In this document: positions 4,024 to 60,304 of the stretch, in pieces
How the letters are laid out: each line of letters starts with the position of its first letter
Position numbering within the stretch: position 1 is the first letter of the stretch
Source of the DNA: Waddlia chondrophila WSU 86-1044
GTDB taxonomy: Bacteria > Chlamydiota > Chlamydiia > Chlamydiales > CAMCWV01
Direction of reading: 5' to 3'
Length of the DNA stretch: 64,000 nt
Assembly: GCA_945882915.1 (NCBI GenBank)
Contig: CAMCWV010000009.1
Coordinates: 4,735 to 68,734, forward strand
Translations under genes and position numbers: made by a program
Notes under the pieces: generated by a model
Told to the model about the DNA's origin: nothing
Seen by the model: the letters and a program-made list of their open reading frames with translations, nothing else
The model's database searches: none

Positions 4024-4187
4024 TATACTCCGCTTAGCTGAAAATGGGAACTTGGACGGCACCAAAGCCCCGGGGCTGAACGATCGCAAGTACCCTTTGT
4101 ATTTCTAATACTAAGGCACTTGCGATCGTTCAGCCGCGGGAGCTTTCGCACCAGTCCACATTCCCATTTTCAGCTGCGAGGAGTATA
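4024..4187. mobile_element. Family A MITE with internal palindromic cargo type 1
   Basis: TIR TATACTCCGCTTAGCTGAAAATGGGAA; inner IR GGCTGAACGATCGCAAGT; inverted copy at 35249-35413. Confidence 0.9.
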
Positions 4188-8818: not shown

Positions 8819-8866
8819 GGCGTTCCTGTTAATGCTTGTGGTTAGTACTTGTAACTTAAGAGGAGT

Positions 8867-9028
8867 ATATACTCCTCTTAGCTGAAAACGGGAATTTGGG
8901 CTAGCGCGAAAGAAAAAAAGAGAAGAAGCCCTTAGCAATTAAAGGGTTACCTTCTGGAGAGGGCAAACGCTAAAGCAGCGGGAACTTTGGAGCCGTCCAA
9001 ATTCCCATTTTCAGCTAAGCGGAGTATA
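8867..9028. mobile_element. Family A MITE with cargo type 2
   Basis: TIRs TATACTCCTCTTAGCTGAAAACGGGAATTTGG; cargo shared with 53980-54126 (inverted). Confidence 0.9.
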
Positions 9029-9038
9029 TTAGAGGGTT

Positions 9039-9112
9039 TGCACCGGAGAGGATTCGAACCTCTGACCTTTCGGTTCGTAGCCGAATGCTCTATCCAGCTG
9101 AGCTACCGGTGC
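9039..9112 (-). tRNA. tRNA-Arg (ACG), CCA not encoded
   Basis: GCACCGG acceptor, TAGCTCAGCTGGATAGAGC D arm, anticodon loop CTACGAA, GGTTCGAATCC T arm. Confidence 0.96.
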
Positions 9113-12879: not shown

Positions 12880-12951
12880 TATACTCCTCATTAGCTGAAA
12901 ACGGGGCGTTCGCGCTAGCCCAAATTCCCGTTTTTAGCTAAGAGGAGTATA
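12880..12951. mobile_element. Family A MITE, short form
   Basis: TATACTCCTC...GAGGAGTATA inverted termini. Confidence 0.9.
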
Positions 12952-16043: not shown

Positions 16044-18275
16044 ATGAAGATATTTCTATCTATTTTAGCATTGCTTTGCTCTCTCCTGTTTGCTAGTGCT
16101 TATGGAGAGGTGGATGGTATGGGAGATTTCTCTCTCACCATTTTTGACGAGCGTCCCGCCATGTCCCCATCTCCAGCTCCTCATGTTCCTAAGGTACCAC
16201 TTCCTAGAGATGTTCTTGATGATATGAATCTTCTTCTAAACTGGACACATAGAGAGAGCTCTATCCCTCCACCGATAGCTCTCAATAACTTTCTAATGCC
16301 CGGCTATTTGAATATGCCCTCAGCGCGGATGCTAGGCGCTGGTTTTATTGGGGCAGGAGCCTCTGACACACCTCCATACACGAACATCAACGTTCTCCTG
16401 CAGCCCTTTTCTAGACTCCAGGTATCGGGAAGCTTTCGCATTTTTCGTGGCGTTCTCGACAGAAATCTTTCTCCTGTAGGTTATGGCGATTATGCCGACC
16501 GGGGAATGAATGCTAAATTTGCGCTGCTACTTCCAGAAGATAGCGGCAATAGTCTTCCTGGAATTTCCATTGGTGGAGAAGATCTGATTGGAACGGGGCT
16601 TTTTCATAGTAAGTATGTTATCGCCACCCAGGTCATCCCTGCTGTTAATATGGAGTTTTCTCTTGGATATGGAGCGGGAAGGATTAAGGGGCTCTTTGGC
16701 GGGGTGGCCTGGTCTCCGTTTGCTCACAAGAAGCGCTGGCCGATAAAAAATCTTACATTTACTGCCGAATACGATGCGATTGATTATGAAAGCTCGGACG
16801 CAGAACCGCATCCATCAGCGCGCACGTTTGATAATCGGGTAAATATTGGAGTCCAGTATCGCTTTTTTAACATGTTCTCTGTCGGTGTGGGGTACATCAA
16901 AGGGCAAGACGTTTCCATGATGGCCGGAGCCACCTACAACTTTGGAGAAACAGAGGGTCTAATTCCTAAAATCGAAGATCCACTCCCCTACAACGCCCCT
17001 AAGATCACAGAGTCTCTTGGGGTTGTGCGGACCGAGACCATGTTTTCCCATGACATCGCTCACGCGCTAAAGCAGCAAGGTTTCAATCTCTTGAGTGTTG
17101 TGATCACAGATTCTACAAAAGAAGGGGTCTCTCTTGTCATCACAATAGACAACCAGACCTACCGCTATGAAAGAATCGCTAGAATGCGTGTGGAGCACAT
17201 TTTAGCCAATCTACTGCCGCAAAATGTGATTAGCATTATTGTTGTTTTTGAATCTGAAGGGATTGCTTGTCAACAGTATGCTTACAGAGGAAAAGAAATA
17301 CACCGTTATGGATCTAAAGAGCTTGGCACCTATGAGCTGCAAACGCTCTCGCCAATGCAGGAGATCACCTTTCCTGACAAAGCAAGGTCCAAAGAAGTCT
17401 ACAAAAGCGACAAGTCCCCTTGGAGCTTTAATTTTCAGCCGCGTGTTCACACCTACTTTAACAGCCCTCAAGGGAAGCTCCAGTATGCCATGGGAGTTGC
17501 TTTAGGCGTTCAAGGGTACTTTGGAAATAATATCTTCTACGAGGTTGAGGGGGTTTATTCCTTTTACACCACTTTCTCGTCAAAGGCAGACTCTCCTGGT
17601 ATAATTGGAAAGAATCTTTTAAGAGTTTATAGTGACTATGACATTTACTTGAGAAACCGCGCTCTTAACCTCGACATTGCCTACTTGCAAAAGGGATGGG
17701 CGCTGGGGAATGGGTTTTCTTTCCGGGTGGCAAGCGGATACTTTGGTCCAGTGTTTGGAGGGGGCGCTGTTGAGGCGTTGTTCTATCCTGTAAACTCGTT
17801 AATTGGAGTGGGCGTTAATGCTGCAGTTTTATGGAAGAGGGACTATTATGGATTTGGTTTCCAAAGAGAGCTCCATTATTCAAACGGCCAAGAGCTTTTT
17901 CTGCAGAGGTATTCCTATCTGAAGCAGTACTTTGTCGATTTCTACTACGACATCGAACCCATTAGCATAAAAACTAAAGTGAGTGTGGGAAGGTTTTTGG
18001 CTGGTGACTACGGCGCGCGTGTGGATGTTACTCGGTACTTTCCTAGCGGACTTGAGATCTCTTTATGGTACACGATGACAAACGCAAAAGAAACCATTAA
18101 CGGCAGCCTTTACTACGACAATGGCGTAGCTTTTAGAGTTCCTCTCGATCTTCTGTATGAGTTTAGCGCTCGCTCTCATGTGGGCTTTGCGATATCTGCC
18201 TGGACAAGGGACACCGGGCGGCGAAGCGAAACGGGCAAATCCCTCTACGACATTCTATCCGCCGAACGGCGCTAG
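16044..18275 (+). CDS. YjbH/GfcD-family outer-membrane protein
   Basis: Signal peptide; GYLNMPSARM, DLIGTGLF, EYDA and GRFLAGDYGAR motifs. Confidence 0.75.
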   Translation: MKIFLSILALLCSLLFASAYGEVDGMGDFSLTIFDERPAMSPSPAPHVPKVPLPRDVLDDMNLLLNWTHRESSIPPPIALNNFLMPGYLNMPSARMLGAGFIGAGASDTPPYTNINVLLQPFSRLQVSGSFRIFRGVLDRNLSPVGYGDYADRGMNAKFALLLPEDSGNSLPGISIGGEDLIGTGLFHSKYVIATQVIPAVNMEFSLGYGAGRIKGLFGGVAWSPFAHKKRWPIKNLTFTAEYDAIDYESSDAEPHPSARTFDNRVNIGVQYRFFNMFSVGVGYIKGQDVSMMAGATYNFGETEGLIPKIEDPLPYNAPKITESLGVVRTETMFSHDIAHALKQQGFNLLSVVITDSTKEGVSLVITIDNQTYRYERIARMRVEHILANLLPQNVISIIVVFESEGIACQQYAYRGKEIHRYGSKELGTYELQTLSPMQEITFPDKARSKEVYKSDKSPWSFNFQPRVHTYFNSPQGKLQYAMGVALGVQGYFGNNIFYEVEGVYSFYTTFSSKADSPGIIGKNLLRVYSDYDIYLRNRALNLDIAYLQKGWALGNGFSFRVASGYFGPVFGGGAVEALFYPVNSLIGVGVNAAVLWKRDYYGFGFQRELHYSNGQELFLQRYSYLKQYFVDFYYDIEPISIKTKVSVGRFLAGDYGARVDVTRYFPSGLEISLWYTMTNAKETINGSLYYDNGVAFRVPLDLLYEFSARSHVGFAISAWTRDTGRRSETGKSLYDILSAERR

Positions 18276-18314
18276 TGGTCTGTCAATATTAAAATTACGG
18301 GTGGTTTTCCAAAA

Positions 18315-18384
18315 TATACTCCTCTTAGTTGAAAACGGGGCTTTGGCGCCGTCCAAAGTCCCATTCTTAACTAAGAGGAGTATA
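18315..18384. mobile_element. Family A MITE, 70-bp form, between convergent genes
   Basis: TATACTCCTCTTAGTT...AACTAAGAGGAGTATA. Confidence 0.9.
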
Positions 18385-18390
18385 TAACGC

Positions 18391-19368
18391 TTATTCCTCA
18401 AGGAGCCACTCAGCAGCCTGCCTTGCAGCATAGGTGAGGATGACATCTGCCCCCGCACGCTTGATTCCTATTAAACATTCGAGCATTGCCTTTTTCGGGT
18501 CGAGCCACTTGTTTTGGGCAGCAGCCATGATCATCGCATACTCACCGCTCACGTGGTAAGCAGCTACCGGGAGTGTTGTGTGGGCGCGCAATTTAGAAAT
18601 GATATCCAAGTAAGGAAGTGCCGGCTTTACCATCAAAAAGTCAGCACCCTCTTCTTCATCAAGAGTTGCTTCTCGGATTGCCTCGGTCGCATTTGCCGGG
18701 TTTATCTGATAGGTTTTTTTGTCTCCAAAAGCAAGCTTAACATTAAGCGCATCTCTAAAAGGTCCATAAAACGACGAAGCATACTTCGCTGTGTAGGCCA
18801 TGATACTGACGTGTTCACAATTAAATTTATCAAGCGATTGACGAATGTGCCTGATGCGACCATCCATCATGTCACTTGGCGCTACAATGTCTACACCTGC
18901 TCCTGCTTGAACAATCGCCATCTTTCCGAGAACTTCTACCGTCTCATCGTTAAGAATCTCACCTTTGTCGTTTACAAGCCCATCGTGCCCATGGCTCGTA
19001 TAAGGATCCAGCGCGATATCGGCAATCACACACATTTCCGGAAATTCTTTTTTTAAGGCGCGAATAGCGCGCTGCAACAAGCCCTCAGGATTAAGGGCTT
19101 GTGTTCCAGTAATGTCTTTTTGCTCCTGGGGGATTACGGGAAAAAGTGCCATTGCCGGAATGCCTAACTTGAGCAAGGCTTCAGCTTCTTTAAGCAGCAG
19201 GTCAATCGAAAGGCGACTTACTCCAGGCAAACTCAGAATGGGTTCTTTTTGCCCCGTTCCCTCTTTTACAAAATAAGGGGCGATAAAATCGGAAGGATGA
19301 AGGCGCGTTTCTTGCACCATTTCACGAATGGCGTGACATTTGCGGTTGCGACGAGGTCTTTTTAACAT
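18391..19368 (-). CDS. hemB: Porphobilinogen synthase
   Basis: ALDPYTSHGHDG, SDMMDGR, FYGPFRDA and MVKPALPYLD motifs; ATG 19368 follows a GGGGG RBS. Confidence 0.96.
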   Translation of the reverse strand: MLKRPRRNRKCHAIREMVQETRLHPSDFIAPYFVKEGTGQKEPILSLPGVSRLSIDLLLKEAEALLKLGIPAMALFPVIPQEQKDITGTQALNPEGLLQRAIRALKKEFPEMCVIADIALDPYTSHGHDGLVNDKGEILNDETVEVLGKMAIVQAGAGVDIVAPSDMMDGRIRHIRQSLDKFNCEHVSIMAYTAKYASSFYGPFRDALNVKLAFGDKKTYQINPANATEAIREATLDEEEGADFLMVKPALPYLDIISKLRAHTTLPVAAYHVSGEYAMIMAAAQNKWLDPKKAMLECLIGIKRAGADVILTYAARQAAEWLLEE

Positions 19369-19781
19369 GTGATAGCCCCCAGATTTAGGCATAAAAATAG
19401 GAAAGGGATCATAGGAATCATTGACATAATCCACAACGTCTTAGGAAGAGGATAAAGAGAAGTTATTAAATACTCTTCTTCTTCAGAGGGTGTGGGAATG
19501 TTCATGGTTATCAACGACGCCCCTTCTGGAAAAAATGTTAATATATTGTTAGTGAACAGATCGTAAAGTGCCGCTTATGAACTTTTTCCTTGCGATGAAC
19601 AAAAGCGTGTTCATAGATCTTCTGGTTTTGGGGCGGGTTGTGAACATCTTTTCCACAAGTTTGGCTTGGTCAACTCTTCAACAGGTTTTTTGTTTTTCGC
19701 TTGATCGGCGGGGGAGGATATGGCAACCTCAATGTCTTCGCATTTTTCGGCAGAGGTTTTTCAACGCCCCGGAGTATTAAT
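19369..19781. other. Probable chromosomal replication origin (oriC)
   Basis: DnaA-box matches TTTTCCACA 19649-19657, TAATCCACA 19427-19435, TTTTCCAGA (minus) 19525-19533 and TTATCAACG 19508-19516; AT-rich tract near 19530-19550; hemB/thyX context. Confidence 0.7.
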
Positions 19782-21413
19782 ATGCAATCGTACGAAGAGT
19801 TCAGCGAGACACAGGCCAAAATTCTTGAGCGTTATGTCTCTAACACGGCTGGGGATGCTAACGTTTTTGTATTACATAACCTCCCAGAGGTAATCAAGGG
19901 GGCTCTTTTCTCCCGCTATTCCCGCTCTAGCCTTGGTCTTCGCACCCTCCTTTTAAAGGAGTTTATTTTAAATGAAGAGACCGCCTTTGACTCTATTGTA
20001 GCCCAGCAGACCCACTCTTCAGAGAGTCAGATGGTCGCAATTAAAAAGGCCCAAAATTTTTATGACCGTATTCTTGATGGATATGGAGATGATTCGATCG
20101 GAGAGCTTGGTGGCGCCCATTTAGCCATCGAAAACGTTTCGATGATTGCTGCCAAAGCTATCGAAGATCAACGCATTGGGGGCTCCCCTCTAGAAAAGTC
20201 TACGCGCTATATTTATTTCGATCAGAAGGTGAAAGGAGAGTACCTTTTTTGCAGAGAGCCCGTGCTTTGCACGTCGGGCTACAAAGAAATCTATGTTAAC
20301 ACCTGTAACATGCTTTTTGAGACATATAGCCGCCTTATTCCCCCGATGACAGCTTTAATGGAAGAGCGCAGCCCAATTAAGTCTTTCCCCGACGGCACTA
20401 CGAAGCAGGCTTATGGGGCATCCTTAAGGGCTAAAGTTCTTGATTGCCTCCGCGGCCTTTTGCCTGCAAGTACTCTTACGAATATGGGCGTCTATGGAAA
20501 TGGGCGCTTCTTTGAGCATCTTGTTCAGAAGCTCCACAGCAGCGGCCTTAAGGAACTTGAGGACATTGGAAAGTATTCTTACGACGAACTCGTCAAAACG
20601 GTGCCTTCTTTTATTCGTAGAGCCGAAGTAAATCACAAGCACTATAAAACATTTGCTTGCTTCCGAGAGGCAATTCAAGGGCAGATTAGCCATGTTGCCA
20701 AAAAGCACCGCGCAAATGTGGAAAGGTCCCAGAAGCCTGGAGTTCGCTTGATTCAGTCGGGCTCAGATATTGTTACAAAAGTCGCTGGCGCTTTGCTGTT
20801 TGGCACTTCTAATGCAGGACTCTATGAGTGGCAAGAGTATTGCCGGGGTCTTTCTGAAGAGGATATTGCAAGTATTTTCGATGCGGCGAGCAATGCAAGA
20901 GAAAATCGACGCCACAAGTCTCCACGCGGCCTTGAGCATGCAGAATTTACTTTCGAAATCATTGCCGACTTTGGGATTTACCGCGATTTGCACCGTCACA
21001 GACTGCTCACACAAGAGCGCCAGCTCCTTTCGTGTGATTATGGATATGCTGTCCCTACAGAGATTCTAGGTACTCCTATGGAAAAAGAATATCGCGATGC
21101 TATGGAGGAGGCAGCAGAGGCTTACAAGACTATTGCTGAAGAACTCCCTGAAGAGGCTCAGTATGTTGTTCCGATGGCGTACAACATCCGTTGGTACATG
21201 CACGCTAACTTACGCGCTTTACAGTGGATTTGCGAGCTACGCTCCTCGCCAGCAGGCCATCCCCACTACCGCTATGTGGCTCAAGAAATTGCGCGGCAGA
21301 TCACTCAGAAGTACCCTGCATTTGGTTGTTTCTTCAAGTTTGTAGACCGCGAAGGGTATGAGCTAGGTCGCCTTGGACAAGAGCAGCGCACCACCGACAA
21401 ACAACGTAAGTAA
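19782..21413 (+). CDS. thyX: FAD-dependent thymidylate synthase, chlamydial double-domain type
   Basis: LEKSTRY and RDLHRHR..QERQ motifs; RGLLP; GGAG RBS before ATG 19782. Confidence 0.9.
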   Translation: MQSYEEFSETQAKILERYVSNTAGDANVFVLHNLPEVIKGALFSRYSRSSLGLRTLLLKEFILNEETAFDSIVAQQTHSSESQMVAIKKAQNFYDRILDGYGDDSIGELGGAHLAIENVSMIAAKAIEDQRIGGSPLEKSTRYIYFDQKVKGEYLFCREPVLCTSGYKEIYVNTCNMLFETYSRLIPPMTALMEERSPIKSFPDGTTKQAYGASLRAKVLDCLRGLLPASTLTNMGVYGNGRFFEHLVQKLHSSGLKELEDIGKYSYDELVKTVPSFIRRAEVNHKHYKTFACFREAIQGQISHVAKKHRANVERSQKPGVRLIQSGSDIVTKVAGALLFGTSNAGLYEWQEYCRGLSEEDIASIFDAASNARENRRHKSPRGLEHAEFTFEIIADFGIYRDLHRHRLLTQERQLLSCDYGYAVPTEILGTPMEKEYRDAMEEAAEAYKTIAEELPEEAQYVVPMAYNIRWYMHANLRALQWICELRSSPAGHPHYRYVAQEIARQITQKYPAFGCFFKFVDREGYELGRLGQEQRTTDKQRK

Positions 21414-21422
21414 CAAAGAATG

Positions 21423-21522
21423 CAGAACGGGATAACTGGATATTTAAGATGAAATTAAGGAGCAACGCTTACGCTCGCTCCTTAATTTTATCTTAAATAC
21501 CCAACCTTCCTATCCTGTTCTG
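21423..21522. repeat. 100-bp imperfect palindrome after thyX (possible terminator or MITE)
   Basis: TATTTAAGATGAAATTAAGGAGC / GCTCCTTAATTTTATCTTAAATA arms; outer CAGAACGGGATA / TATCCTGTTCTG. Confidence 0.8.
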
Positions 21523-21534
21523 AATAGTTTGTGC

Positions 21535-21564
21535 TTGGCAAGAAACGGGCGATTCGGCGATAAT
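21535..21564 (+). promoter_or_regulatory. Candidate sigma-66/70 promoter of the tyrP operon leader
   Basis: TTGGCA-18 nt-GATAAT, ending 7 nt before ATG 21572. Confidence 0.45.
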
Positions 21565-21571
21565 TACAGGC

Positions 21572-21643
21572 ATGTCAAAGAACTCCTTTTTCGTTACATC
21601 TTTTTTTTCCTTCTTTTGGTGGCTAACCCCTAGCCACTCATAA
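21572..21643 (+). CDS. Putative Phe/Trp-rich attenuator leader peptide MSKNSFFVTSFFSFFWWLTPSHS
   Basis: 23 codons with 6 Phe and tandem Trp-Trp; hairpin GTGGCTA-ACCCC-TAGCCAC overlaps the Trp codons; lies upstream of aromatic amino acid permeases and trpS. Confidence 0.72.
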   Translation: MSKNSFFVTSFFSFFWWLTPSHS

Positions 21644-21751
21644 TACTTCCAACTCACGTTTTTTTGTTTTTTAGCCTCTAATTTTCCACAGGAATTCAAG
21701 TAATTCTTTGGAAGTGGCGGCGAACATTTTTTTATATTTTCAGGGGGAGCC

Positions 21752-23059
21752 ATGTCTCGGTCTCTTGCCCGTAAGGCTCACAAAGGAAGTCTTACAGGAG
21801 CCATCTTACTTATCGCCGGTAGCTGTATTGGCGCGGGAATGCTTGCGCTACCCATTGTCACGGGTATCGCTGGTTTCTATCCATCTGCACTGATGTTTGT
21901 TCTCTGCTGGCTCTTCATGACCTCCACAGGTCTACTCCTGCTCGAAGTTAATCTATGGTATGGAATAAGCATTAATATTGTTTCCCTTTCTCAGCGGACA
22001 CTCGGCTCGATTGGTAAAGTGCTGAGCTGGGGACTCTTTTTGTTTCTTTTCTACAGTATTAACGTCGCTTACGTTTCTGCAACAAGCGCCCTTTTTGCCG
22101 ATTTTTTCCGTGGGACATTCGGAATAGAGCTGCCACGTACAATGGGAAGCACCCTTTGCATCTTAATCTTTGGGGGGATTGTCTATTTAGGCACCCACGC
22201 CGTTGATAAATGCAATCGGCTCCTTATGGCCGGACTTATTGCAGCTTACGCGCTGTTGATCTCGCTTGGGAGCTCTCACGTCCAAAGCTCCTATTTGGTT
22301 TATACTGACTGGAAATATTCTCTCCTCGGAATTCCTGTAATGATCATCAGCTTTGGTTTTCATAACATGATTCCGAGCATTACCTCCTATTTGAATGGAG
22401 ATGCTAAGCGGCTGCGCATTGCATTTATCGCCGGCAGCGCCATTCCTTTGGTGGTTTATGTCCTCTGGCAGTTCGTGATCCTCGGGATCGTCCCTGTTCA
22501 GGGGGGCAATGGCTTTATTCAAGCTCTTCATGACGATTCATTTGCAACAGAGACGCTGCAAATGGTTGTTGGAAGCGCGTGGGTGGGAAATGTCGCGCAG
22601 TATTTCGCATTCTTTGCTATTACCACATCATTTTTGGGGCAGTCATTGAGTCTTGTCGACTTTATTGCCGATGGTTTGAAAGGGAAGCTGAAAAAAGAGA
22701 GTCCTTTAGGGCGTTTGGCCCTTTGTGGCTTTGCTCTTTTGCCCTCTTTGGCAATCACCCTCTCTTACCCCCACATCTTCTTGATTGCTTTGGGGTATGC
22801 GGGAGCCTTCGGTGCTGTTATTCTCTTTGGTTTGATGCCGGCACTTATGGTGTGGAAGGGGCGTTATAAGATGGGCTTTACCCATCAGCAGATTATGCCA
22901 GGGGGGAGGCTTACCCTTTCTCTTGTGATGTGCTTTGCAATTGTAGTTATTCTATTACAATTAGGCAAGACAACTGGAATGAGCTATTTCCAGCCACCTA
23001 CTCCAAAAGTCATTTCTAACCTCGTTTTCAATGGCGTTGAAGGGGTCGAAAAGTGGTAA
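21752..23059 (+). CDS. tyrP: Aromatic amino acid permease (TyrP/Mtr, HAAAP family), copy 1
   Basis: IAGSCIGAGMLALP, SFGFHNMIPS and TSFLG motifs. Confidence 0.88.
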   Translation: MSRSLARKAHKGSLTGAILLIAGSCIGAGMLALPIVTGIAGFYPSALMFVLCWLFMTSTGLLLLEVNLWYGISINIVSLSQRTLGSIGKVLSWGLFLFLFYSINVAYVSATSALFADFFRGTFGIELPRTMGSTLCILIFGGIVYLGTHAVDKCNRLLMAGLIAAYALLISLGSSHVQSSYLVYTDWKYSLLGIPVMIISFGFHNMIPSITSYLNGDAKRLRIAFIAGSAIPLVVYVLWQFVILGIVPVQGGNGFIQALHDDSFATETLQMVVGSAWVGNVAQYFAFFAITTSFLGQSLSLVDFIADGLKGKLKKESPLGRLALCGFALLPSLAITLSYPHIFLIALGYAGAFGAVILFGLMPALMVWKGRYKMGFTHQQIMPGGRLTLSLVMCFAIVVILLQLGKTTGMSYFQPPTPKVISNLVFNGVEGVEKW

Positions 23060-24246
23060 AGAAAAGTAAGGTTTTAGGGGGGGTCCTCCTCGTTGCGGGG
23101 ACGACCATTGGAGCTGGCATGCTCGCTATGCCAGTATCTACAGGAGGCGGAGGATTCTTGCCCTCCTGTGTGTTGCTGCTGATTGTGTGGCTATGCATGC
23201 TGTTCACGGCGTTTCTCATGCTCGAGGTCAATCTTTGGATGAGCGGAGATTCGAACATCATTACGATGGCTAAGCATACTCTTGGAAAGGTGGGCCAGGC
23301 TATCACTTGGATTGTTTACCTGTTGCTGCTCTATTCATTAACAGCTGCCTATATTGTTGGGTGCGCGCCTCTAATCCTTCATGCGACTTCGTCGTTAACA
23401 GGGCACGAAATGCCCTTCTGGGTTGGGACAATCCCCTTGCTGGTAGTCTTCGGATCGTTCGTCTATTTGGGGACAAAGGCAGTAGATTGGATCAACCGTT
23501 TGTTGATGACAGGCCTTGTCTTGAGCTATACTCTTATGCTTAGCCTGATCTTACCCCATGTCGATCCAGAACTTCTTATGTATGAGAACTGGAAAGTGGT
23601 TTGGCCCGCAACGACGGTTGTCGTAACTTCATTCGGTTATCACATCATCATTCCAAGCCTAACGACTTATTTGGAACGGGATGTGAAGAAGTTGAGAGTA
23701 ACCGTTCTTATTGGAAGCACCGTTCCCCTGGCGGTTTACTTCCTCTGGCAGGCGGCGATCCTTGGAGCGATCCCTGCCTATGGCGAAGGGGGGTTGTTGC
23801 ATATTTTGGAGCTTAATCAGCCAACAGCGCACCTGACGCATGCACTTGATAGGATATTGAATAGTCAGTGGGTGACGACAGCTTCTCGGTTCTTTGCCTT
23901 CTTTGCTGTTGTGACATCCTTTTTAGGTGTTTCCTTAAGCCTTTCAGACTTTTTAGCGGATGGCTTAAAGATTAAAAAAACTGAAAAAGGCAAGATAATT
24001 ACTTGCGCACTAACGTTTGCGCCGCCTCTTATCTTTGCTTTGGCATATCCTCAGGGGTTTATTATAGCCTTGAAGTACGCCGGCGTGCTCGTGGCGGTAC
24101 TTTTGATCCTGCTGCCGGTTGCAATGGTGTGGATCGGGCGTTACCGGAAGGGGTATGTAGGGCCTTTTCGCACTTGGGGGGGCAAGCCTGCTATGGCGCT
24201 TGCTTCGATCATAGCTCTTGTGGTGATCGCCATTGAACTCATTTAA
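23053..24246 (+). CDS. tyrP: Aromatic amino acid permease (TyrP/Mtr, HAAAP family), copy 2
   Basis: VAGTTIGAGMLAMP, SFGYHIIIPSL and TSFLGVSLSL motifs. Confidence 0.88.
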   Translation: MVKKSKVLGGVLLVAGTTIGAGMLAMPVSTGGGGFLPSCVLLLIVWLCMLFTAFLMLEVNLWMSGDSNIITMAKHTLGKVGQAITWIVYLLLLYSLTAAYIVGCAPLILHATSSLTGHEMPFWVGTIPLLVVFGSFVYLGTKAVDWINRLLMTGLVLSYTLMLSLILPHVDPELLMYENWKVVWPATTVVVTSFGYHIIIPSLTTYLERDVKKLRVTVLIGSTVPLAVYFLWQAAILGAIPAYGEGGLLHILELNQPTAHLTHALDRILNSQWVTTASRFFAFFAVVTSFLGVSLSLSDFLADGLKIKKTEKGKIITCALTFAPPLIFALAYPQGFIIALKYAGVLVAVLLILLPVAMVWIGRYRKGYVGPFRTWGGKPAMALASIIALVVIAIELI

Positions 24247-24254
24247 GAGGGGTA

Positions 24255-24352
24255 TATACTCCTCTGAGCTGAAAATGGGACTTTGGACGGCGCCAAGGCC
24301 CCGGGAGCTTTCGCGCTAGCCCAAAGTCCCATTTTCAACTAAGAGGAGTATA
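24255..24352. mobile_element. Family A MITE whose last base is the A of the trpS ATG
   Basis: Ends in AACTAAGAGGAGTATA, followed by TG. Confidence 0.92.
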
Positions 24353-25416
24353 TGACAACAAAAAAAAGAATTCTTACCGGAGATAGGCCCACAGGGTCTA
24401 TGCACATAGGCCATTACGTGGGGTCATTAAAAAACCGTGTAGCACTGCAGGATAAGTTTGAGTGCTATTTTATTATTGCCGACCTTCACACGCTCACCAC
24501 AAAGCCAGAGAAGGAGCATATCCTGGCCATACGTGAAAATGTTCACGAGATGGTTTTGGATTATTTGGGATGTGGGATAGACCCTTCAAAGACAACGATT
24601 TATCTGCAGTCGGCAGTCCCTGCCGTGTTTGAGCTGAACCTGATTTTTGAGATGATGGTCTCGCTGAACAGGCTGACAGGGCTCCCTAGCATCAAGGAGA
24701 TGGCCCGTAACGCCCATATGTCTGAAGATAGCATCCCTTTTGGGCTTATTGGATATCCTGTTTTGCAATCTGCGGATATTTTGATGCCCAGAGCGCATGC
24801 CGTGCCTGTCGGAAAAGACAATGAAGCTCACATAGAGCTTTGCAGAGATATTGCACGCAGGTTTAATCAGCACTACGGAGAGGTGTTCCCGCTTCCAGAG
24901 GCCATTTTAGGAGAGGTTCCTACACTTGTGGGGACAGATGGTAATGGGAAGATGAGCAAGTCACTTGGAAATTGCATATACCTTTCAGATGATGCAAAGA
25001 CCGTCGATAAGAAGGTGCGTGGCATGTACACAGATCCTAAAAGGATCCGCGCTGATGTGCCGGGAACTGTCGAGGGAAATCCTGTGTTTTCCTACCACGA
25101 CATCTTTAACCCTGACAAGGCAGAGGTTGAGGATCTTAAGAAACGGTACCGTGAAGGGGCTGTTGGAGATGTTGAAGTAAAAGAGAAGCTTGCAAGGTCT
25201 ATCAATGAGTTTTTAGATCCCATACGAGAAAAGCGTCAGTACTATGCTCAGGATAAAGGATTTGTCGAGCAGGTTGTCTATGAAGGGACTCTGAAGATGA
25301 GAGAGTGCGCGGAAGAGACGATGAAAGAGGTGCGTTCTGCTATGGGGCTTCTTGGGTCGTGGAACAAGATCTCCCGCATAGCCAGAGACCGCATGGAACG
25401 CATAAAAGGACAGTAA
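24352..25416 (+). CDS. trpS: Tryptophanyl-tRNA synthetase
   Basis: [21 protein letters not shown] and KMSKS motifs. Confidence 0.97.
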
Positions 25417-25420
25417 AGGC

Positions 25421-27469
25421 GTGGTGTGCATGAAGAAGTTTAGGTTGCAGACATCTTTTGAGCCATGTGGCGACCAGCCTCAAGCAATTAAAAAGCTTGT
25501 GGATGCAACAAACAGAGGCAAAAAGTCACAGGTGCTTTTGGGGATTACGGGGTCTGGAAAGACCTTTACGATGGCCAATGTGATCTCTCAGGTTCAGCGC
25601 CCGGCTCTTATCATCGCGCACAACAAAACTCTGGCCTCACAGCTCTATCACGAGTTCAAGACGTTCTTTCCAGATAATGCTGTTGAGTATTTTGTTTCTT
25701 ATTACGACTACTATCAGCCAGAAGCCTACCTTCCTCGTAGCGACACCTATATCGAAAAGGATATGTCGATCAATGAAGAGATCGACAAGATGCGCCTTAG
25801 CGCAACGCGCTCGTTAATCGAAAGGGAGGATGTGATTATTGTCGCCTCTGTTTCTTGTATTTACGGCCTGGGGATGCCTGAGTACTATGCTAAAATGAAC
25901 CTCCTTATTGAATCTGGCGAGAGCTACCGGCGAGATGAGCTCTTAGTGCATCTTCTTCAGATGCACTACACCAGAAATGATTTTGACTTCTCGCGCAAAA
26001 ACTTCCGCGTTCGTGGGGATGTTCTAGAGATCTTCCCTGCTTACGAAGATGACCTCGCTATTCGAGTAGAGTTTTTTGATGATGAGGTGGAGAGGATCAG
26101 CGAGATTGACCCGCTAACGGGAAAAGTTCTTCGTAGACTCGACAGAGTAACGATCTATCCCGGTTCCCACCACGTAACACCTGAATCTGTCCGCTTGCTG
26201 GCTATGGAGACGATTAAAGAGGAGCTCAATGCGCGCGTTAATGTCTATGAAAACGACAATAGAATTACAGAGAAAGAGCGCATTTGGCAGCGGACTATGT
26301 ACGATCTTGAGATGATTCGAGAGGTCGGATTTTGTAAAGGGATCGAGAACTATTCGCGTCACTTTGGGAGCAGATCTCCTGGCTCTGCGCCTTCGTGTCT
26401 TATCGATTACTTTCCCAAAAACTTTTTGCTCTTTGTAGATGAGTCTCACCAGACGCTCCCGCAAATTCATGCGATGTACAATGGGGACCATGCCCGCAAA
26501 CAAGCGCTTGTTGATTATGGGTTTCGTCTCCCTTCTGCCTTTGATAACCGCCCTTTGAAGTTTGATGAGGTGTTTGACCGGATAGGGCAGGTGATCTATG
26601 TCTCGGCCACACCTGGGAAGTGGGAGGTTGAAGAGGCGGGCGGTGAGGTTGTCGATCAGATTATTCGCCCTACAGGGCTTCTCGATCCTCAAATTGAAGT
26701 GCGTCCTGCCTCTGGAGAGGTGGGGCAGGTGGATGATTGCCTTGAAGAGATAAAGCTTCACACCGAAAAAGGTGGGCGCGTGCTAGTAACGACCTTAACG
26801 AAGAGGCTTGCCGAGGAGCTTAGCAAGTATCTTCAAGAGCTGAACATCAAGTCCAAATACCTTCACTCCGATGTTGATACGCTAGAACGGGTACAGATCA
26901 TTCGCGATTTAAGATCTGGCGTGTGCGATGTGCTTGTTGGAATTAACCTTTTAAGAGAAGGTTTGGATATTCCAGAGGTCTCGTTAGTGGCTATTTTGGA
27001 TGCTGATAAAGAAGGATTTTTGCGCAGTCAAACGGCATTGATTCAAACATGTGGCCGCGCATCACGTAATTCTGAAGGGCGAGTCATCATGTATGCTGAC
27101 CGCCAGACCGAATCAATTCGCGCAACACTGGAAATTACCGCTTCTCGCAGAGCAGTCCAGCAAGCCTACAATGAAAAGCACGGGATCACCCCAACGACGA
27201 CAAAGCGAGAGCTGGGGCCTGATTTAACACAAGATGTCGCGGCGCATACCCTTTCATTCAATAAGGGGTCAAAAACTAAGACGAAGAAGGCAGAGCTTCC
27301 CTCTCCAGAGAAACAGCATCACTACCTGACAGGCGCAGAAATCAATGGGAAGATCAAAGAGTGCGAAGCTGACATGAAGCTTGCCGCTAAAGAGCATCGC
27401 TTTGAAGATGCTGCCCGCCTTCGTGATGCCATGCACCACTTCCAAGAAATGGCCCTCACCCTGCTGTAG
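25421..27469 (+). CDS. uvrB: Excinuclease ABC subunit B (start GTG 25421 or ATG 25430)
   Basis: [22 protein letters not shown] and a C-terminal UVR domain. Confidence 0.97.
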
Positions 27470-27512
27470 CAAGATTGAAAGGGCCGTTTATTTTGGACTA
27501 ATAAACTAAGCA

Positions 27513-27685
27513 GTAACAGTTCACATACCCCCCCCTTTCGTCGGTGCATGTGAACTGTTATAAACTTTTTTGTATTTTCTCTCACACCTCTGTGTTTCAA
27601 AAAAAAAGATATTAAGATTTTTGAAACACAGAGGCGTGAGAGAACGTGAGAGAAAGAAAAGGCCTAAAAATGTGGGTAATGACAA
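27513..27685 (+). repeat. Family F two-hairpin element
   Basis: GTAACAGTTCACATAC..GTGAACTGTTA hairpin plus CTCTGTGTTTCAAAAA..TTTTTGAAACACAGAG hairpin; copies at 44471 and 50715. Confidence 0.88.
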
Positions 27686-27692
27686 GGGCTTA

Positions 27693-27732
27693 GGCGCCGT
27701 CCAAATTCCCGTTTTCAGCTAAGCGGAGTATA
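27693..27732. repeat. Family A solo right arm
   Basis: GGCGCCGTCCAAATTCCCGTTTTCAGCTAAGCGGAGTATA. Confidence 0.85.
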
Positions 27733-27741
27733 TAATACAAA

Positions 27742-27833
27742 CAGACCCACGCCTACAGCAAACGTTTGCTTGGTGACAGGTTAGATCCCAGACCTTAGGC
27801 GGCCTACGTTACCTTCTGGAGAGGGCAAACGCT
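27742..27833. repeat. Family D arm
   Basis: Matches 63883-63972; its end GTTACCTTCTGGAGAGGGCAAACGCT also occurs inside family A cargo type 2. Confidence 0.85.
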
Positions 27834-27838
27834 TAGGC

Positions 27839-30487
27839 TTAGTCTGCTTTGCCCATGAAGTGAGGGGTGATGAGTTTAGCGACGTGGAACATCGAGACTG
27901 GCTCGGTTGTTCCAAAGATTTTAGCAAGAGGCCCATCAGGCAAGATCATCCGCTTGTCAGTAGGTGACTGGCAATTGTTTGCTTTAATGTACACCCACAG
28001 ATTCTTCACAACATCTGGGCGGCTCATGGCCCCCACACCCACAAAGGCTGCAAGGGTCGGAGAGAGCTGAATGGGGGCTTGAGCTCTGGGCTTTTTCGGT
28101 GCGTTGCTAGCTGCTGCTTTTTTCGGTGCTTTTGCTTTGCTAGCTCCTGTCTTTGTTTTAGCTCCTGTCTTTGTTTTAGCTGCCGGTTTTTCTTGCCCCT
28201 TCTTTACTTTCTTTATGTAAGGGGCTTTGGCGTGGCTCTCGCCATATTTTGAGTGTATCTGCTCGACGCTGTTTCCAATGATATCGCAGTGGGGATAGGT
28301 CGTGCATGAATAGAAAGTGCTCTTCTTTCCGTAGCGGAAGGATGTCTTGGCGCTCAGCCTTCCATCACATCCAATAGCAACGCAGTGAGGGAGGTCCTCA
28401 AAAGGAATTATTACCTCTCCTTTTGCAGGGATCTTGACGAGCCCCTTGCAGTTAGGATAGGTCTCGCAGCCCATAAAGGCGCCGTAGGGTCCATGACGAA
28501 CGGACATCTTCTGTCCGCAAAGAGGGCAGGGCTGCTCCCAGTTAAACCCTTCGCCGTAATCTCCTTTGTCGAACGTTGCATGTTCTAATGAAGAGGAGTG
28601 ATCGCAATCAGGGTAGCGTGAGCAGGAGTAGAAGTATTTGGCGCTAGAAATCGCCCATGTCTTTTGAAGCTTGCTCCCATGTTCTGCGCCGCACTTTGGG
28701 CAATCGATATCTGTAGGGATTTTTGGGACGATCGCACTCTTTATGGCCTCTTCTACAGAAGGGGAGAATTTTGCCCAAAAGTCTATGATGACAGCCTTCC
28801 AATCCTTCTGATTTTCAGCGACCTGTTCCAGGTCATCTTCCATTTGCTTTGTGAAATCGATATTCATGACAAGCTGGAAGCTTGTCTCAAGCATTTCAGC
28901 TACAACACGGCCAAGGCCAGTGGGTTTAAGGCGGCCTTGCTCTTTTACGGTATAATCCCTGCTCTGAATTTTATTCATGATCGCTGCATACGTAGAAGGT
29001 CTGCCGATCCCGCGCTTTTCTAGCTCTTTGACAAGAGAGGCTTCAGAGTAGCGTGGAGGTGGGCGTGTGAAGGATTGCTCGTGAGTGAGCTTCTTCAAAT
29101 CCAGAGGGTTTCCTTCAGCAAGAGATGCGGGGATTTTTGATTCTTCTTCTTTTTCTTTGTCATCTTCTTGCTCTTCATAGACAGCCAGGAATCCTTTGAA
29201 CTTTATGGTCGAGCCGGTAGCGCGAAGCATGATGCTCTGGTCTGTGGCGATGTCAGCAGAGACTGTGTCGTAAACAGCTGGAGCCATTTGTGAGGCAACA
29301 AAACGCCTCCAGATTAGTCCGTAAAGCATATTTTGTTCGCGGTTTAGGAATGGTTCAACGACCTCTGGAGGGTGTTTGAGGTTTGTTGGGCGGATCGCTT
29401 CGTGGGCGTCTTGAGCATTTTTGGTTTTAAAGACGTTGGCCTCTGCTGGAAGGAATGGCGCTCCGTATTGCTTTGCAATAAGAGTGCGAGCTTCGCTAAT
29501 TGCTTCCGGCGCTGAGCGTACAGAGTCAGTACGCATATAAGTAATAAGGCCTTCTGTCCCCTCATTGCCCATGTCAATTCCCTCATAGAGGCCTTGGGCG
29601 ATTCTCATGGTGTTTGAAACCGAGAATCCACACTGACGGCTGGCTTCTTGTTGTAGCGTAGATGTAATGAAGGGGGGTTTAGAGTATCTTCTTTCTTCTT
29701 TTTTATCGACTCTACCGACTTTGTACTTGGCCTTTTTTAGCCTCGCAACAATAGACTCTGCCGTCTTTTGATCGGGGATCGTTGTGAGAGTATCTTTCCC
29801 GTCCTGGAGTTCTTTTTCGACGCGCTTGCCATCAACTGTATGGACGGTCGCTTTAAAGACCGGCTCTTTTTCTTTGCCTGTTTCTAGTAAGGCGGCGATG
29901 TTCCAGTATTCGATGGACTTGAATGCTTCGATCTCTTTTTCTCTGTCGACAACAAGTTTAAGGGCAATCGATTGCACCCGTCCTGCAGAGATAGACCCCT
30001 CTGAACTGCTTCGTCTGATTCTTCTAGCAAGGATTGGAGAGATTGTATAGCCAACAAGTCTATCGAGGAGTCTACGCGCTTGCTGCGCATTAACAAGGGC
30101 AAGGTCAATGTTACGTGGGTTGCTTAACGCTTTAACTACGGCATCTTTAGTGATCGAATGGAAACTCGCCCGCTTGATGGTCGTTTTTTCTGGGAAGATA
30201 CTTGCAAGGTGCCAAGCAATCGCCTCTCCTTCCCTATCAGGATCGGGACAGAGGTAGACGGTATCGCACTGTTTGGCTGCTTTGATAAGATTTGAGACCA
30301 CCTGCTGCTTGTCTTCAAGGATTTCGTACTGGGGCTCGAAGTTATGCTCCATATCGATCCCCATTCCTTTTTTGGGCAAGTCGCGGATATGCCCATAGGA
30401 AGACTCGAATCTATAATCGGGCCCAAGAAACTTTTGCAGCGATTTGATTTTTGCCGGAGACTCGACGATAACTAATGACTTACCCAT
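27839..30487 (-). CDS. topA: DNA topoisomerase I with zinc ribbons and a C-terminal SWIB domain
   Basis: IVESPAK, DPDREGE, GRVQS and ITYMRTDS motifs; SWIB-like LWVYIKANNCQ after a K/A-rich linker. Confidence 0.96.
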   Translation of the reverse strand: MGKSLVIVESPAKIKSLQKFLGPDYRFESSYGHIRDLPKKGMGIDMEHNFEPQYEILEDKQQVVSNLIKAAKQCDTVYLCPDPDREGEAIAWHLASIFPEKTTIKRASFHSITKDAVVKALSNPRNIDLALVNAQQARRLLDRLVGYTISPILARRIRRSSSEGSISAGRVQSIALKLVVDREKEIEAFKSIEYWNIAALLETGKEKEPVFKATVHTVDGKRVEKELQDGKDTLTTIPDQKTAESIVARLKKAKYKVGRVDKKEERRYSKPPFITSTLQQEASRQCGFSVSNTMRIAQGLYEGIDMGNEGTEGLITYMRTDSVRSAPEAISEARTLIAKQYGAPFLPAEANVFKTKNAQDAHEAIRPTNLKHPPEVVEPFLNREQNMLYGLIWRRFVASQMAPAVYDTVSADIATDQSIMLRATGSTIKFKGFLAVYEEQEDDKEKEEESKIPASLAEGNPLDLKKLTHEQSFTRPPPRYSEASLVKELEKRGIGRPSTYAAIMNKIQSRDYTVKEQGRLKPTGLGRVVAEMLETSFQLVMNIDFTKQMEDDLEQVAENQKDWKAVIIDFWAKFSPSVEEAIKSAIVPKIPTDIDCPKCGAEHGSKLQKTWAISSAKYFYSCSRYPDCDHSSSLEHATFDKGDYGEGFNWEQPCPLCGQKMSVRHGPYGAFMGCETYPNCKGLVKIPAKGEVIIPFEDLPHCVAIGCDGRLSAKTSFRYGKKSTFYSCTTYPHCDIIGNSVEQIHSKYGESHAKAPYIKKVKKGQEKPAAKTKTGAKTKTGASKAKAPKKAAASNAPKKPRAQAPIQLSPTLAAFVGVGAMSRPDVVKNLWVYIKANNCQSPTDKRMILPDGPLAKIFGTTEPVSMFHVAKLITPHFMGKAD

Positions 30488-30509
30488 TTAGGGAGACTCC
30501 ATTTGTGAC

Positions 30510-32685: not shown

Positions 32686-32747
32686 GGAAGTAACCTATCC
32701 AAAAAAGCTGGAATACTGCAAGAATCAAAAAATAAAGACATGTACAA

Positions 32748-32821
32748 GGTTTTATTGCATAATTGTAATTGCAGCCTGTAAGGCTGCTACTCTTAAGGGG
32801 CTGTAATTATGCAACAATGCC
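32748..32821. mobile_element. Family B MITE with a perfect 9-bp target duplication
   Basis: CATGTACAA at 32739-32747 and at 32822-32830 flanks GGTTTTATTGCATAAT...ATTATGCAACAATGCC. Confidence 0.9.
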
Positions 32822-32839
32822 CATGTACAACGGCTTGAC

Positions 32840-33736: not shown

Positions 33737-33755
33737 TATACTCCTCTTAGGTGAA
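33737..33755. repeat. Family A terminus remnant overlapping the rpoN stop codon
   Basis: TATACTCCTCTTAGGTGAA compared with consensus TATACTCCTCTTAGCTGAA. Confidence 0.7.
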
Positions 33756-35243: not shown

Positions 35244-35248
35244 TTGGG

Positions 35249-35413
35249 TATACTCCTCGTAGTTGAAAATGGGAATTTGGACTAGCGCGAAAGCTCCCGC
35301 GGCTGAACGATCGTAAGTGCCTTAGTATTAGAAATACAACGGGCACTTGCGATCGTTCAGCCGCGGGAGCTTTCGCGTCGTCCAAGTTCCCATTTTCAGC
35401 TACGAGGAGTATA
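35249..35413. mobile_element. Family A MITE with cargo type 1, directly upstream of rpoN
   Basis: Long IR arms; on the minus strand it reads GAGGAGTATACCCAAATG into rpoN. Confidence 0.92.
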
Positions 35414-35550
35414 CCTCCTACTCCCTCGTTATATTCCCCCTCTCTTACATAGTAAACTTAATATTTTATTTTTATCTGACTCCCCACTTCCTTTTTCATT
35501 CTTTATCGGGTATCCTTCACCCTTTATTTCGTTTAGAGCACTTCCGGGTC

Positions 35551-35583
35551 AGCCCGAATTCTCATTTTCAGCCAAGAGGAATA
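35551..35583. repeat. Eroded family A right arm forming the mutL RBS
   Basis: AGCCCGAATTCTCATTTTCAGCCAAGAGGAATA, followed by TG. Confidence 0.75.
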
Positions 35584-37469
35584 TGGCGACTAAAATACGT
35601 GTTCTTCCAGATCAGGCAATCAATCAGATCGCCGCCGGAGAGGTGGTCGAAAATTCTGCATCGGTAGTCAAGGAGCTTGTCGAAAATGCATTAGATGCAG
35701 GCGCCACCGACATCCATGTCGAAGTGAAAGCGGGCGGGCGCCATCTTATCCGTGTTGTCGATAATGGATGCGGAATGGTTCCTGACGATGCCCTTCTTTG
35801 TCTTGAAAGGCATGCAACATCAAAGATCCGAAGTGCTGATGATCTCAATCAGCTCAGTACCATGGGTTTCCGTGGTGAGGCTCTCCCTTCAATTGCTGCG
35901 GTTTCTAAGTTTACCCTTCTTACAGCGCCTGCTAAAGGAGAGGCTACAATCGTCGTTATTGAAGGTGGCCGCATCATGCACAGCGGAGCCAGTAGCCGCT
36001 CACAAGGAACGACAATCGAGGTGAAGAGCCTCTTCTTTAACGTCCCTGTAAGGAAGAAGTTTCTCCGCTCTGTTGCTTACGACACTGCTGAAGTTGATAA
36101 GATGATGAGCCAGTTAGCGCTAGCTAATCCTAAAGTTAAGTTTCAGCTTGTCAGCGACCAGAAGATTCTTTTGAATGCGACGTCAGCGGCTGCCTTCTCA
36201 GATGAAGAGGGGCTCGCTGTCCGGATTGCTGATGTTCTAGGTTCTGATTTTTTTTCCTCTTTGGCCCCTGTTTCTTTTTCTCAAGAGCCTTTCCAAATTT
36301 CTGGATTTATTGGCTCCCCCACATGCACCCGCTCTAATCGGACGGGGCAATCTATTTTTATCAATCGACGCCCAGTGATCTGTCCTCTTGTCTCTGTTGC
36401 TGTAAACGATGGGTATGGATCCTGTTTGCAGTCACAGCGGTTTCCTGTTTTTGTATTGCACATTACCATTCCTGGAGACTGGGTGGATGTGAATGTTCAT
36501 CCTCAGAAGCGTGAAGTGCGCCTGCGTGAAGAGCTGCTATTTAAGCAGCTAGTTGCCAGAGCTGTTGAAAAGGCTTTGCAGCGAAGTGGAGCCCACAGCT
36601 TGATTTCTAGCAGTAGCGCAGATGAGGCAGAGCAAGATCTTCCTATTGAAGAGACCTCCTCAGTAAGAGCCCCTTTTGTTATACCTGAGGCATTTGCTCA
36701 TTTAGTCATGGAGCCTGCAGAAAAAGTTCCGTATATGCGTGGGCGCGACTTTTCGTTTTCGGCCAGGTCTGAATCGCGCGCTGAACAAAGAGAATTCTCC
36801 AAGTTGCCTGAGGCCGACCTTTTTTCTGCCTCTAGTAAAAATGCTTGCTTGCCGCGCGTTCTTGGGGTTTCTGGTGTTCATATTATCGCAGAGGCTTCTG
36901 GTTTAGAGACAAGTGGAGGCGTTTCTGGTTTTCAAAAAGGACGAGAGGGGTGGGTGTTTATTGATGTTCGGGCCGCCGGCGCGCGCGTCCTCTTTGAGCA
37001 GCTCATTCGGCAGAGCAAGGCTTTGACTTTAGAAACTGAAACAATGCAAACACTTCTTCTTCCGATTACTTTAGAGTTTTCGACTGCAGAAACGTTGCTT
37101 GTGATGAGTTCTCTTGAAGAGCTAAACCGAATGGGACTCGGGATTCGCTCGCTTGGGAAAAGTAGTTTTATTGTGGACGCTTTGACGCCGCTGCTCGATG
37201 GTGTCGATGTAGCTAGTTTAATCAGAGAGATCATTCAAGAGCTGCGCCATGCAAAAGGAGGGCAGCTGATAACAAAAGAAAAAGAGCGTTTAATTGCTGT
37301 TCAGGCCTGTAGGCAAGCCGTTTTGAGAGGGGATAAGTATTCGCGTGAAAGAGCTCAAGCTCTTGTGGAAGCTCTCTTAGAGTGCCAGTCTCCTTTTCAG
37401 TGCCCCCAGGGAATGCCCACAATGATTTTTGTTTCTCAGTCCGAAATTTTTAAGCGCTTCGAATCCTAG
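35583..37469 (+). CDS. mutL: DNA mismatch repair protein MutL
   Basis: IAAGEVVE, KELVENALDAG, GFRGEAL and DVNVHPQK motifs. Confidence 0.95.
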   Translation: MATKIRVLPDQAINQIAAGEVVENSASVVKELVENALDAGATDIHVEVKAGGRHLIRVVDNGCGMVPDDALLCLERHATSKIRSADDLNQLSTMGFRGEALPSIAAVSKFTLLTAPAKGEATIVVIEGGRIMHSGASSRSQGTTIEVKSLFFNVPVRKKFLRSVAYDTAEVDKMMSQLALANPKVKFQLVSDQKILLNATSAAAFSDEEGLAVRIADVLGSDFFSSLAPVSFSQEPFQISGFIGSPTCTRSNRTGQSIFINRRPVICPLVSVAVNDGYGSCLQSQRFPVFVLHITIPGDWVDVNVHPQKREVRLREELLFKQLVARAVEKALQRSGAHSLISSSSADEAEQDLPIEETSSVRAPFVIPEAFAHLVMEPAEKVPYMRGRDFSFSARSESRAEQREFSKLPEADLFSASSKNACLPRVLGVSGVHIIAEASGLETSGGVSGFQKGREGWVFIDVRAAGARVLFEQLIRQSKALTLETETMQTLLLPITLEFSTAETLLVMSSLEELNRMGLGIRSLGKSSFIVDALTPLLDGVDVASLIREIIQELRHAKGGQLITKEKERLIAVQACRQAVLRGDKYSRERAQALVEALLECQSPFQCPQGMPTMIFVSQSEIFKRFES

Positions 37470-37501
37470 AGTTTCAAACTTATTTAAAAAAATGTAGGCT
37501 T

Positions 37502-38681: not shown

Positions 38682-38751
38682 TATACTCCTCGTAGCTGAA
38701 AACGGGAATTTGGGCTAGCCCAAATTCCCGTTTTCAGCTACGAGGAGTATA
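38682..38751. mobile_element. Family A MITE, perfect 70-bp palindrome
   Basis: 35-bp arms with no loop and no mismatch. Confidence 0.95.
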
Positions 38752-46560: not shown

Positions 46561-46630
46561 TATACTCCTCATAGCTGAAAACGGGGCTTTGGCGTGGTCC
46601 AAGTTCCTGTTTTCAGTTACGAGGAGTATA
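46561..46630. mobile_element. Family A MITE, 70-bp form
   Basis: TATACTCCTC...GAGGAGTATA. Confidence 0.9.
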
Positions 46631-50144: not shown

Positions 50145-50214
50145 TATACTCCGCTTAGCTGAAAATGAGAATTTGGACGGCGCCAAAGCCCCATTTTCAG
50201 CTAAGAAGAGTATA
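50145..50214. mobile_element. Family A MITE, 70-bp form
   Basis: TATACTCCGCTTAGCTGAAAATG...CATTTTCAGCTAAGAAGAGTATA. Confidence 0.9.
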
Positions 50215-53979: not shown

Positions 53980-54126
53980 CATACTCCTCGTAGCTGAAAA
54001 TGGGAAAAATTATCCTAAACAAGCGCTTGCTCTCTCCAGAAGGTAACCCTTTAATTGCTACGGGCTTCTTCTCTTTTTTTCTTTTGTGCGCCGTCCAAGT
54101 TCCCATTTTCAGCTAAGAGGAGTATA
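53980..54126. mobile_element. Family A MITE with cargo type 2; last base is the A of the next ATG
   Basis: Ends in CAGCTAAGAGGAGTATA, followed by TG. Confidence 0.9.
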
Positions 54127-60234: not shown

Positions 60235-60304
60235 TATACTCCTCTTAGTTGAAAACAGGACTTTGGCGCCGTCCAAGTTCCTATTTTCAGCTACGAGGAG
60301 TATA
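60235..60304. mobile_element. Family A MITE, 70-bp form
   Basis: TATACTCCTCTTAGTTGAAAA...TTTTCAGCTACGAGGAGTATA. Confidence 0.9.

Follow-up and report, generated by a model that had tools for sequence, protein, structure and literature searches.

Correia elements of Neisseria (CREE or NEMIS) are small palindromic miniature inverted-repeat transposable elements (MITEs) with TA flanks and TATA-like ends; they are abundant between genes and near gene starts, and are co-transcribed as hairpins that RNase III cleaves. They also carry integration host factor sites and functional promoters, and the passages on them in Delihas 2011 (PMC3184786) make no mention of a last base held in common with start codons. 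The corresponding passages on REP2 of Neisseria and on IR-A and IR-B of Borrelia plasmids describe repeats that lie directly upstream of genes and supply both a ribosome-binding site (RBS) and an initiation codon; REP2 lacks terminal inverted repeats, has its own promoter, provides the whole ATG and is present in about 26 copies (Delihas 2011, PMC3184786). Mycobacterial interspersed repetitive units (MIRUs) appear in the same source as small repeats of polycistronic units, 40-100 bp long and with small reading frames of their own, whose ends overlap adjacent genes (Delihas 2011, PMC3184786). Here we describe a family of palindromic TA-flanked MITEs in an uncultured lake chlamydia, seen in a stretch of 64,000 nucleotides (contig CAMCWV010000009.1 of assembly GCA_945882915.1; hereafter the window) where one copy ends on the A of the ATG of trpS. 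Read outward, the element end is (TAA)GAGGAG-TAT-A.

How does this element compare with the described systems? Correia elements come closest to it, in architecture only: its hairpin is predicted, its host belongs to another phylum, and it carries no promoter signal, whereas Correia ends are described as promoter parts and not as RBSs; the Correia sequence is one that we take to be unrelated. In its relation to genes the element brings to mind REP2, IR-A and MIRUs. It supplies, judged by sequence, a Shine-Dalgarno (SD)-like GAGGAG together with the A of ATG, which it does at 23 genes. It fails the REP2 definition because it has long inverted ends and no detectable promoter, and it differs further in providing only the A of the ATG and in numbering hundreds of copies, most of them away from starts. 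MIRUs occur in tandem and, unlike the present element, are not long perfect TA-flanked hairpins. TA is the target of the IS630/Tc1-mariner superfamily, and MITEs of that type have similar TA flanks and inverted ends, but here a search of the 94%-complete assembly for two transposase families, DDE_3 and DDE_Tnp_1, gave no match. REP and REPIN sequences, in which the REP is short and GC-rich with a conserved tetranucleotide head and goes with a RAYT gene, bear no likeness to the 34-nt arms and TA flanks seen here. What is new in the present case is the relation of a palindromic TA-flanked MITE to start codons; the open-access papers searched yielded no account of MITE termini as SD sequences, nor of MITEs in chlamydiae. 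We consider it reasonably likely, and the best-supported reading, that insertions at starts are tolerated because the element end regenerates the RBS.

A family of palindromic TA-flanked repeats

With up to two mismatches allowed, the window holds 30 occurrences of the 13-nt terminus TAAGAGGAGTATA, where the expectation is 1.22; none of 100 shuffles reached 30. The window is part of an assembly of 1.76 Mb (38 contigs, 46.8% GC), across which a 34-nt arm model counted 752 arms. These arms pair into 291 copies of 67-403 bp, leaving 170 unpaired, and the family covers 1.9% of the genome. The copies fall into size classes (115 at 70-72 bp, 43 at 95-99 bp, 9 at 146-147 bp, 90 at 160-165 bp and a few longer) that have their outer arms in common, inverted ends of about 34 nt, and differ in nested inner palindromes. 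The core is short and non-coding, with no open reading frame (ORF) of its own. The family thus shows both terminal inverted repeats and many dispersed copies, as a MITE should, and the element is a palindromic miniature transposon, non-autonomous and with TA at its flanks. The eight arm pairs with a wide spacing (>420 bp apart) hold ordinary genes and no transposase. An internal or outward promoter was considered and rejected, the sole promoter-like matches being those in which the terminal TATACT is read as a -10 and the flank happens to hold a -35. Eighteen of the unpaired arms lie within 250 nt of contig ends, so the repeat is probably behind many of the breaks in the assembly, and the copies counted are a minimum.

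Nearly all copies have TA on both sides, and 677 of the 752 arms terminate in TATA. Of the two bases that follow the terminal TATA, the first is T in 78% of 681 arms and the second A in 50%, a strong target preference beyond the dinucleotide itself. Once full neighbours are set aside, the flank logo has no CTCC signal past the second base; 79 arms have a TA in common with an inverted full neighbour. Two short palindromes made of two outward-facing arm ends with no arms attached (C20:33909-33926 and C16:42007-42024, on other contigs) look like the leftover junction of two neighbouring copies. Other families account for a further 555 intergenic repeat blocks (about 48 kb), several of which recur beside arms of the TA-flanked family, the same 30-nt flank appearing 4 to 7 times.

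The family was absent from 40 genomes of the same order, among which the host assembly is the sole member of its family, and a search of 160 related loci (0.8 Mb) with the arm model gave a single match (E 0.86). Any role of the element would therefore be recent. The best TrpS relatives, from metagenome-assembled genomes of Parachlamydiaceae and Waddliaceae, are 76% identical, which is the top identity both among genome contigs and among metagenome contigs.

Repeat ends at start codons

Gene calls were ORF-based (1320 genes, 83% coding), the start being taken as the first ATG, GTG or TTG after a stop. Outside the called genes, 386 arms face a gene start. The ATG takes its A from the arm terminus in 23 of these, and other distances hold about 3 arms per nt. 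A further 18 arms end 0-8 nt before a start. At roughly 3% of the called genes, element sequence is thus all that is present where an SD would lie. Genes with an arm at the start include trpS, carA, dxr, murG, dnaE, rpoN and mutL; they have no functional theme in common. Genes that match flagellar or type III export families (FliQ/SctS, FliI/SctN, FliW and sigma-28) are found among them, at C13:49548, C12:24380-25684, C21:10638-11069 and C2:97119-97919. About 10 of the 23 ATG-sharing copies lie within 30 nt of a co-directional upstream gene and so split tight pairs.

The start rule itself might create such an association, if the terminal A followed by TG were not a real start and the choice of the longest ORF placed genes there. 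The TAA-bearing variant of the end, which is in frame with the ATG, does put a stop just before it; moreover, 66 of the 89 arms that are followed by TG open just short ORFs. To judge the starts independently we compared the 44 genes with an arm end at -3 to 8 nt with NCBIfam profiles. In most of them the N-terminus aligns with the first profile positions within a few residues of the called start: TrpS, CarA, Dxr, GcvPA, UbiX, DnaE, PrmC, FliQ/SctS, an MntA-like ATPase, MurG and MutL align at profile positions 1-5 with residues 1-9, and uvrC, kdpD and others are supported as well. The one clear exception is alaS, which probably starts further downstream, and some twelve of the 44 proteins lack a family match. 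At trpS, the N-terminus is conserved residue for residue, and the start is ancestral because relatives begin at the same 15 residues. Nor were any hidden ATG-sharing cases lost through upstream extension. An artefact of gene calling is on this evidence very improbable.

Whether ends are enriched at starts depends on the null. Against TA dinucleotides drawn uniformly from intergenic sequence, 23 of 533 ends are ATG-sharing where 4.8 would be expected (p = 1.5e-9), an excess of about 5-fold. A T-ATG start is by definition a preferred TA-then-T site, so weighting for the base after TA raises the expectation, to 14.7 (p = 0.03), and the excess shrinks to 1.6-fold. When only gene-proximal ends are taken (294, up to 100 nt away), 23.4 would be expected at the ATG-sharing position and 23 are observed. 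T-ATG starts are occupied 1.7 times as often as TA-T ends in general (p = 0.02). With ends re-placed inside the spacer that their own element was removed from, starts showed no excess (15 observed versus 14.1-26.3) and positions directly after stops did (76 versus about 46). This null is usable only in part, since the treatment of blocks retained 15 of the 23 ATG-sharing cases and a very short spacer offers hardly any other site. There is thus no depletion at starts, and little or no excess. The enrichment over random TA by which the first-pass annotation had proposed to judge its idea is found, yet ordinary target preference explains it.

The lack of depletion sets this family apart from the other repeats of the same genome. 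When ends within 100 nt of a start are considered, 41 of 172 lie no more than 8 nt from it in the TA-flanked family, compared with 3 of 98 in other repeat families (p = 2e-6), whose boundaries are k-mer estimates and may overstate their distances by a few bases; with both sets treated as k-mer blocks, the contrast is 13/105 versus 3/98 (p = 0.018). The hexamer is also better kept near starts, as GAGGAG is intact in 37 of 41 arms at -1 to 8 nt and in 461 of 636 others (p = 0.010), and the variant GCGGAG occurs in 1 of 41 arms at SD distance versus 90 of 636 others (p = 0.03). A control 8-mer (33/41 versus 551/636) and the arm score (36.7 versus 36.2) showed no difference. In genes of this host, GAGG at a spacing of 5 nt is common (28 genes). 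GAGGAG is thus a plausible working SD, though perhaps not a necessary one.

At the 3' ends of genes the picture is similar. Thirty-seven genes end inside an arm read inward, 15 of them at TAG (arm nt 12-14), 15 at TGA (nt 16-18) and 5 deeper inside; in the window, 8868 and 18315 are examples of such arms. With stop codons inside its arms, the element also rewrites C-termini by 4-6 codons.

Table 1. The element in the window: copies, arms and the genes that they adjoin (window positions)
Feature	Position	Strand	Remarks
98-bp palindromic MITE copy	24255..24352		final base is the A of the trpS ATG
GAGGAG in right arm, sole SD-like motif upstream of trpS	24343..24348	+	GAGG 5 nt and GGAG 3 nt from ATG
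trpS, single copy in assembly	24352..25416	+	TIGR00233, protein 4-333 on profile 2-328; start ancestral
Left flank TAAGAGGGGTATA, 12/13 identical to element end	24244..24256	+	adjacent arm-like match of 13 nt
TAA inside TAAGAGGGGTATA	24244-24246		stop of the upstream gene
Membrane-protein gene upstream of trpS	23053..24246	+	syntenic with trpS in related chlamydiae
147-bp copy	53980..54126		ends on the first base of the ATG of a 65-aa ORF (54126-54323) with no family match
165-bp copy	35249..35413		left end 5 nt from the start of rpoN (33747-35243, minus strand; TIGR02395)
Eroded unpaired arm, two bases short of consensus	35552..35585	+	ends on the mutL ATG
mutL	35583-37469		TIGR00585, protein 5-555 on profile 1-554
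70-bp copy	46561..46630		left end 9 nt from the start of ORF 45763-46551 (minus strand)
161-bp copy (8868-9028) plus arm-end fragment (8857-8869)	8857..9028		copy and fragment have one TA in common
Fragment ahead of the 8868 copy			reads TAAGAGGAGTA
164-bp copy	4024..4187
72-bp copy	12880..12951
70-bp copy	18315..18384
70-bp copy	38682..38751
70-bp copy	50145..50214
70-bp copy	60235..60304

Within the window (Table 1), the placements that the first-pass annotation had read from the letters stand: the terminal A falls on the ATG of trpS and of the ORF at 54126, the eroded solo arm does the same for mutL, and the G that closes GAGGAG is 9 nt upstream of the ATG of rpoN and 13 nt upstream of that of the ORF at 46551. 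It had also pointed to flanks that resemble the element end, at trpS and ahead of the 8868 copy, and both resemblances are as described. A tRNA gene (9039-9112) follows the 161-bp copy at a distance of 10 nt.

Tolerance, homing or control

Why are the ends of a mobile repeat found so close to start codons? Under the reading that we favour, the element inserts at TA dinucleotides and strongly favours an A in front of the TA and a T behind it, a context that a T-ATG start fits. Insertion at a start or a few bases before it would swap the native upstream region for a usable SD at a workable spacing, and such insertions would not be purged, as those of repeats lacking an RBS-like ending would be. 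The end that reads inward, with TAG and TGA in two frames, would close genes whose 3' end it enters. The motif itself may recruit ribosomes, and the long hairpin that would bury it in read-through mRNA is presumably opened or cut in the cell, for instance by RNase III, which the genome encodes (240 bits, cut-off 166). The first-pass annotation had left it between targeting and tolerance at SD-TA sites. Tolerance is what the scarcity of other repeat families near starts, the kept hexamer and the supply of stops argue for, and active targeting, possible in itself, is unsupported once the base after TA or the distance to a gene is allowed for.

Several observations weigh against this tolerance reading. 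Every arm-to-gene distance depends on the ORF-based gene calls, and the anti-SD is assumed, as the 3' end of 16S rRNA was not found in the assembly with two short motifs as queries. A 4-mer SD is present in only 37% of the genes without the element, so an SD may be dispensable altogether in this genome. The hexamer result is modest and largely due to one subfamily variant, and the 3-nt distance between GGAG and the ATG is seldom seen in this genome (4 of 225 occurrences). Duplication of TA on insertion is suggested by the flanks and not by any empty site. The predicted RNA fold is also a difficulty. Mean minimum free energies are -43, -69 and -112 kcal/mol for the 70, 98 and 164 classes, and around trpS (24235-24385) the predicted fold reaches -66.7 kcal/mol (z -8.6) with both SD and AUG inside the stem, such that initiation on read-through RNA should be blocked. 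Read-through is likely at those ATG-sharing copies that closely follow a co-directional gene. No compensating weakness of terminal pairing was seen near starts (stem mismatches 0.89 versus 0.92), and a -35-like hexamer is not enriched in the far flank (11% versus 11%).

Alternatively, the element or its transposase could recognise end-like stop-SD-TA junctions such as TAAGAGGGGTATATG and land preferentially at RBSs. GGNGTA is found next to TA on the far flank of 6 of the 19 paired ATG-sharing copies and, at a stricter match length, an arm-like distal flank accompanies 5 of these 19 copies, the trpS flank being such a case, compared with 26 of 658 other arms (p = 0.001). The arms that have a TA in common with an inverted full neighbour could be taken in the same sense, and two unoccupied starts read GAGGAGTATATG. 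The gene upstream of trpS is native as far as its TAA, and its junction is equally tight in relatives, which have the pair overlapping or separated by no more than about 15 nt; here a 98-bp hairpin splits the pair. The flank may thus be native and not a relic. However, the A-TA-T preference alone leads one to expect the spike at ATG as well as copies that often land on the TA of an existing end, and the flank logo, full neighbours aside, lacks a CTCC signal past the second base. Moreover, fragments of 11-19 nt adjoin copies far from any start, and solitary end fragments occur elsewhere in the genome, both of which fit relics of earlier copies; as SDs of unoccupied genes, such solitary fragments give 2 clear cases, too few to build on. 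One flank also has a private variant in common with its copy's own arm, which suggests copying or correction over recognition. We thus regard homing to RBSs as unlikely.

For the arm-like flanks themselves, three readings can be considered: native stop-SD-TA junctions that were favoured targets, relics whose terminal TA took a new copy, and later correction of a near-palindrome. The syntenic upstream gene of trpS and the short or overlapping junctions of relatives fit a native junction, and the fragments far from starts and the private variant fit relics or copying. An empty site was not recovered from 40 relatives, from 160 related loci or from the contigs of four metagenome DNA runs (three studies) over 18201-38200. 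Runs of a second study carry the trpS copy in contigs that end inside the palindrome, and no joint skips the copy.

Could the hairpins have been turned into a means of control? If so, translation of about 40 genes would depend on opening or cleavage of the stem by RNase III, a helicase or upstream ribosomes, which would give these genes a common post-transcriptional control and uncouple formerly coupled pairs. The predicted stems are very stable and enclose SD and AUG, RNase III is encoded, tight co-directional pairs are split (that of trpS overlapping or nearly so in relatives), and the in-frame TAA variant is over-represented at the ATG-sharing position (15/23 versus 207/654 elsewhere, p = 0.0013). 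On the other hand, the asymmetric classes have no orientation bias (18 versus 31 in the 164 class, p = 0.09; 18 versus 11 in the 98 class, p = 0.26), stems near starts are neither tighter nor looser than others, the affected genes lack a common theme, and the family was not met in the same-order genomes or related loci, which would make any role recent. No RNA run was found to cover positions 21000-29000 of the window. Such a layer seems doubtful to us. The first-pass annotation had proposed that a long hairpin sequesters the supplied RBS; the predicted fold at trpS agrees, and on that predicted hairpin its proposed translational-control layer would rest. The same low probability applies to a bolder form, which we think would hold only with some luck: that the element end is shaped as a full mimic of an intercistronic junction (TAA, GAGGAG, TAT, A of ATG) and colonises initiation sites, including the junctions of tightly coupled housekeeping operons, where the hairpin would make translation dependent on RNase III or on unwinding by ribosomes and so constitute a transposon-built, genome-wide post-transcriptional layer.

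Possible consequences for translation initiation in the host

The short interval from RBS to start is usually free of mobile repeats, and here one family occupies it at about 3% of genes in a small genome. The genes affected include a single-copy tRNA synthetase gene and the gene of the replicative polymerase, and the ending of the element offers a simple reason for its presence at such sites. Should the motif be dispensable, what is left is a target-site preference in a genome tolerant of weak SDs. If the motif works, the family would show clearly how a transposon can rewrite translation-initiation regions on a large scale, and the hairpins that should hide the motif would form a natural test set for translation through, or processing of, very stable 5' structures.

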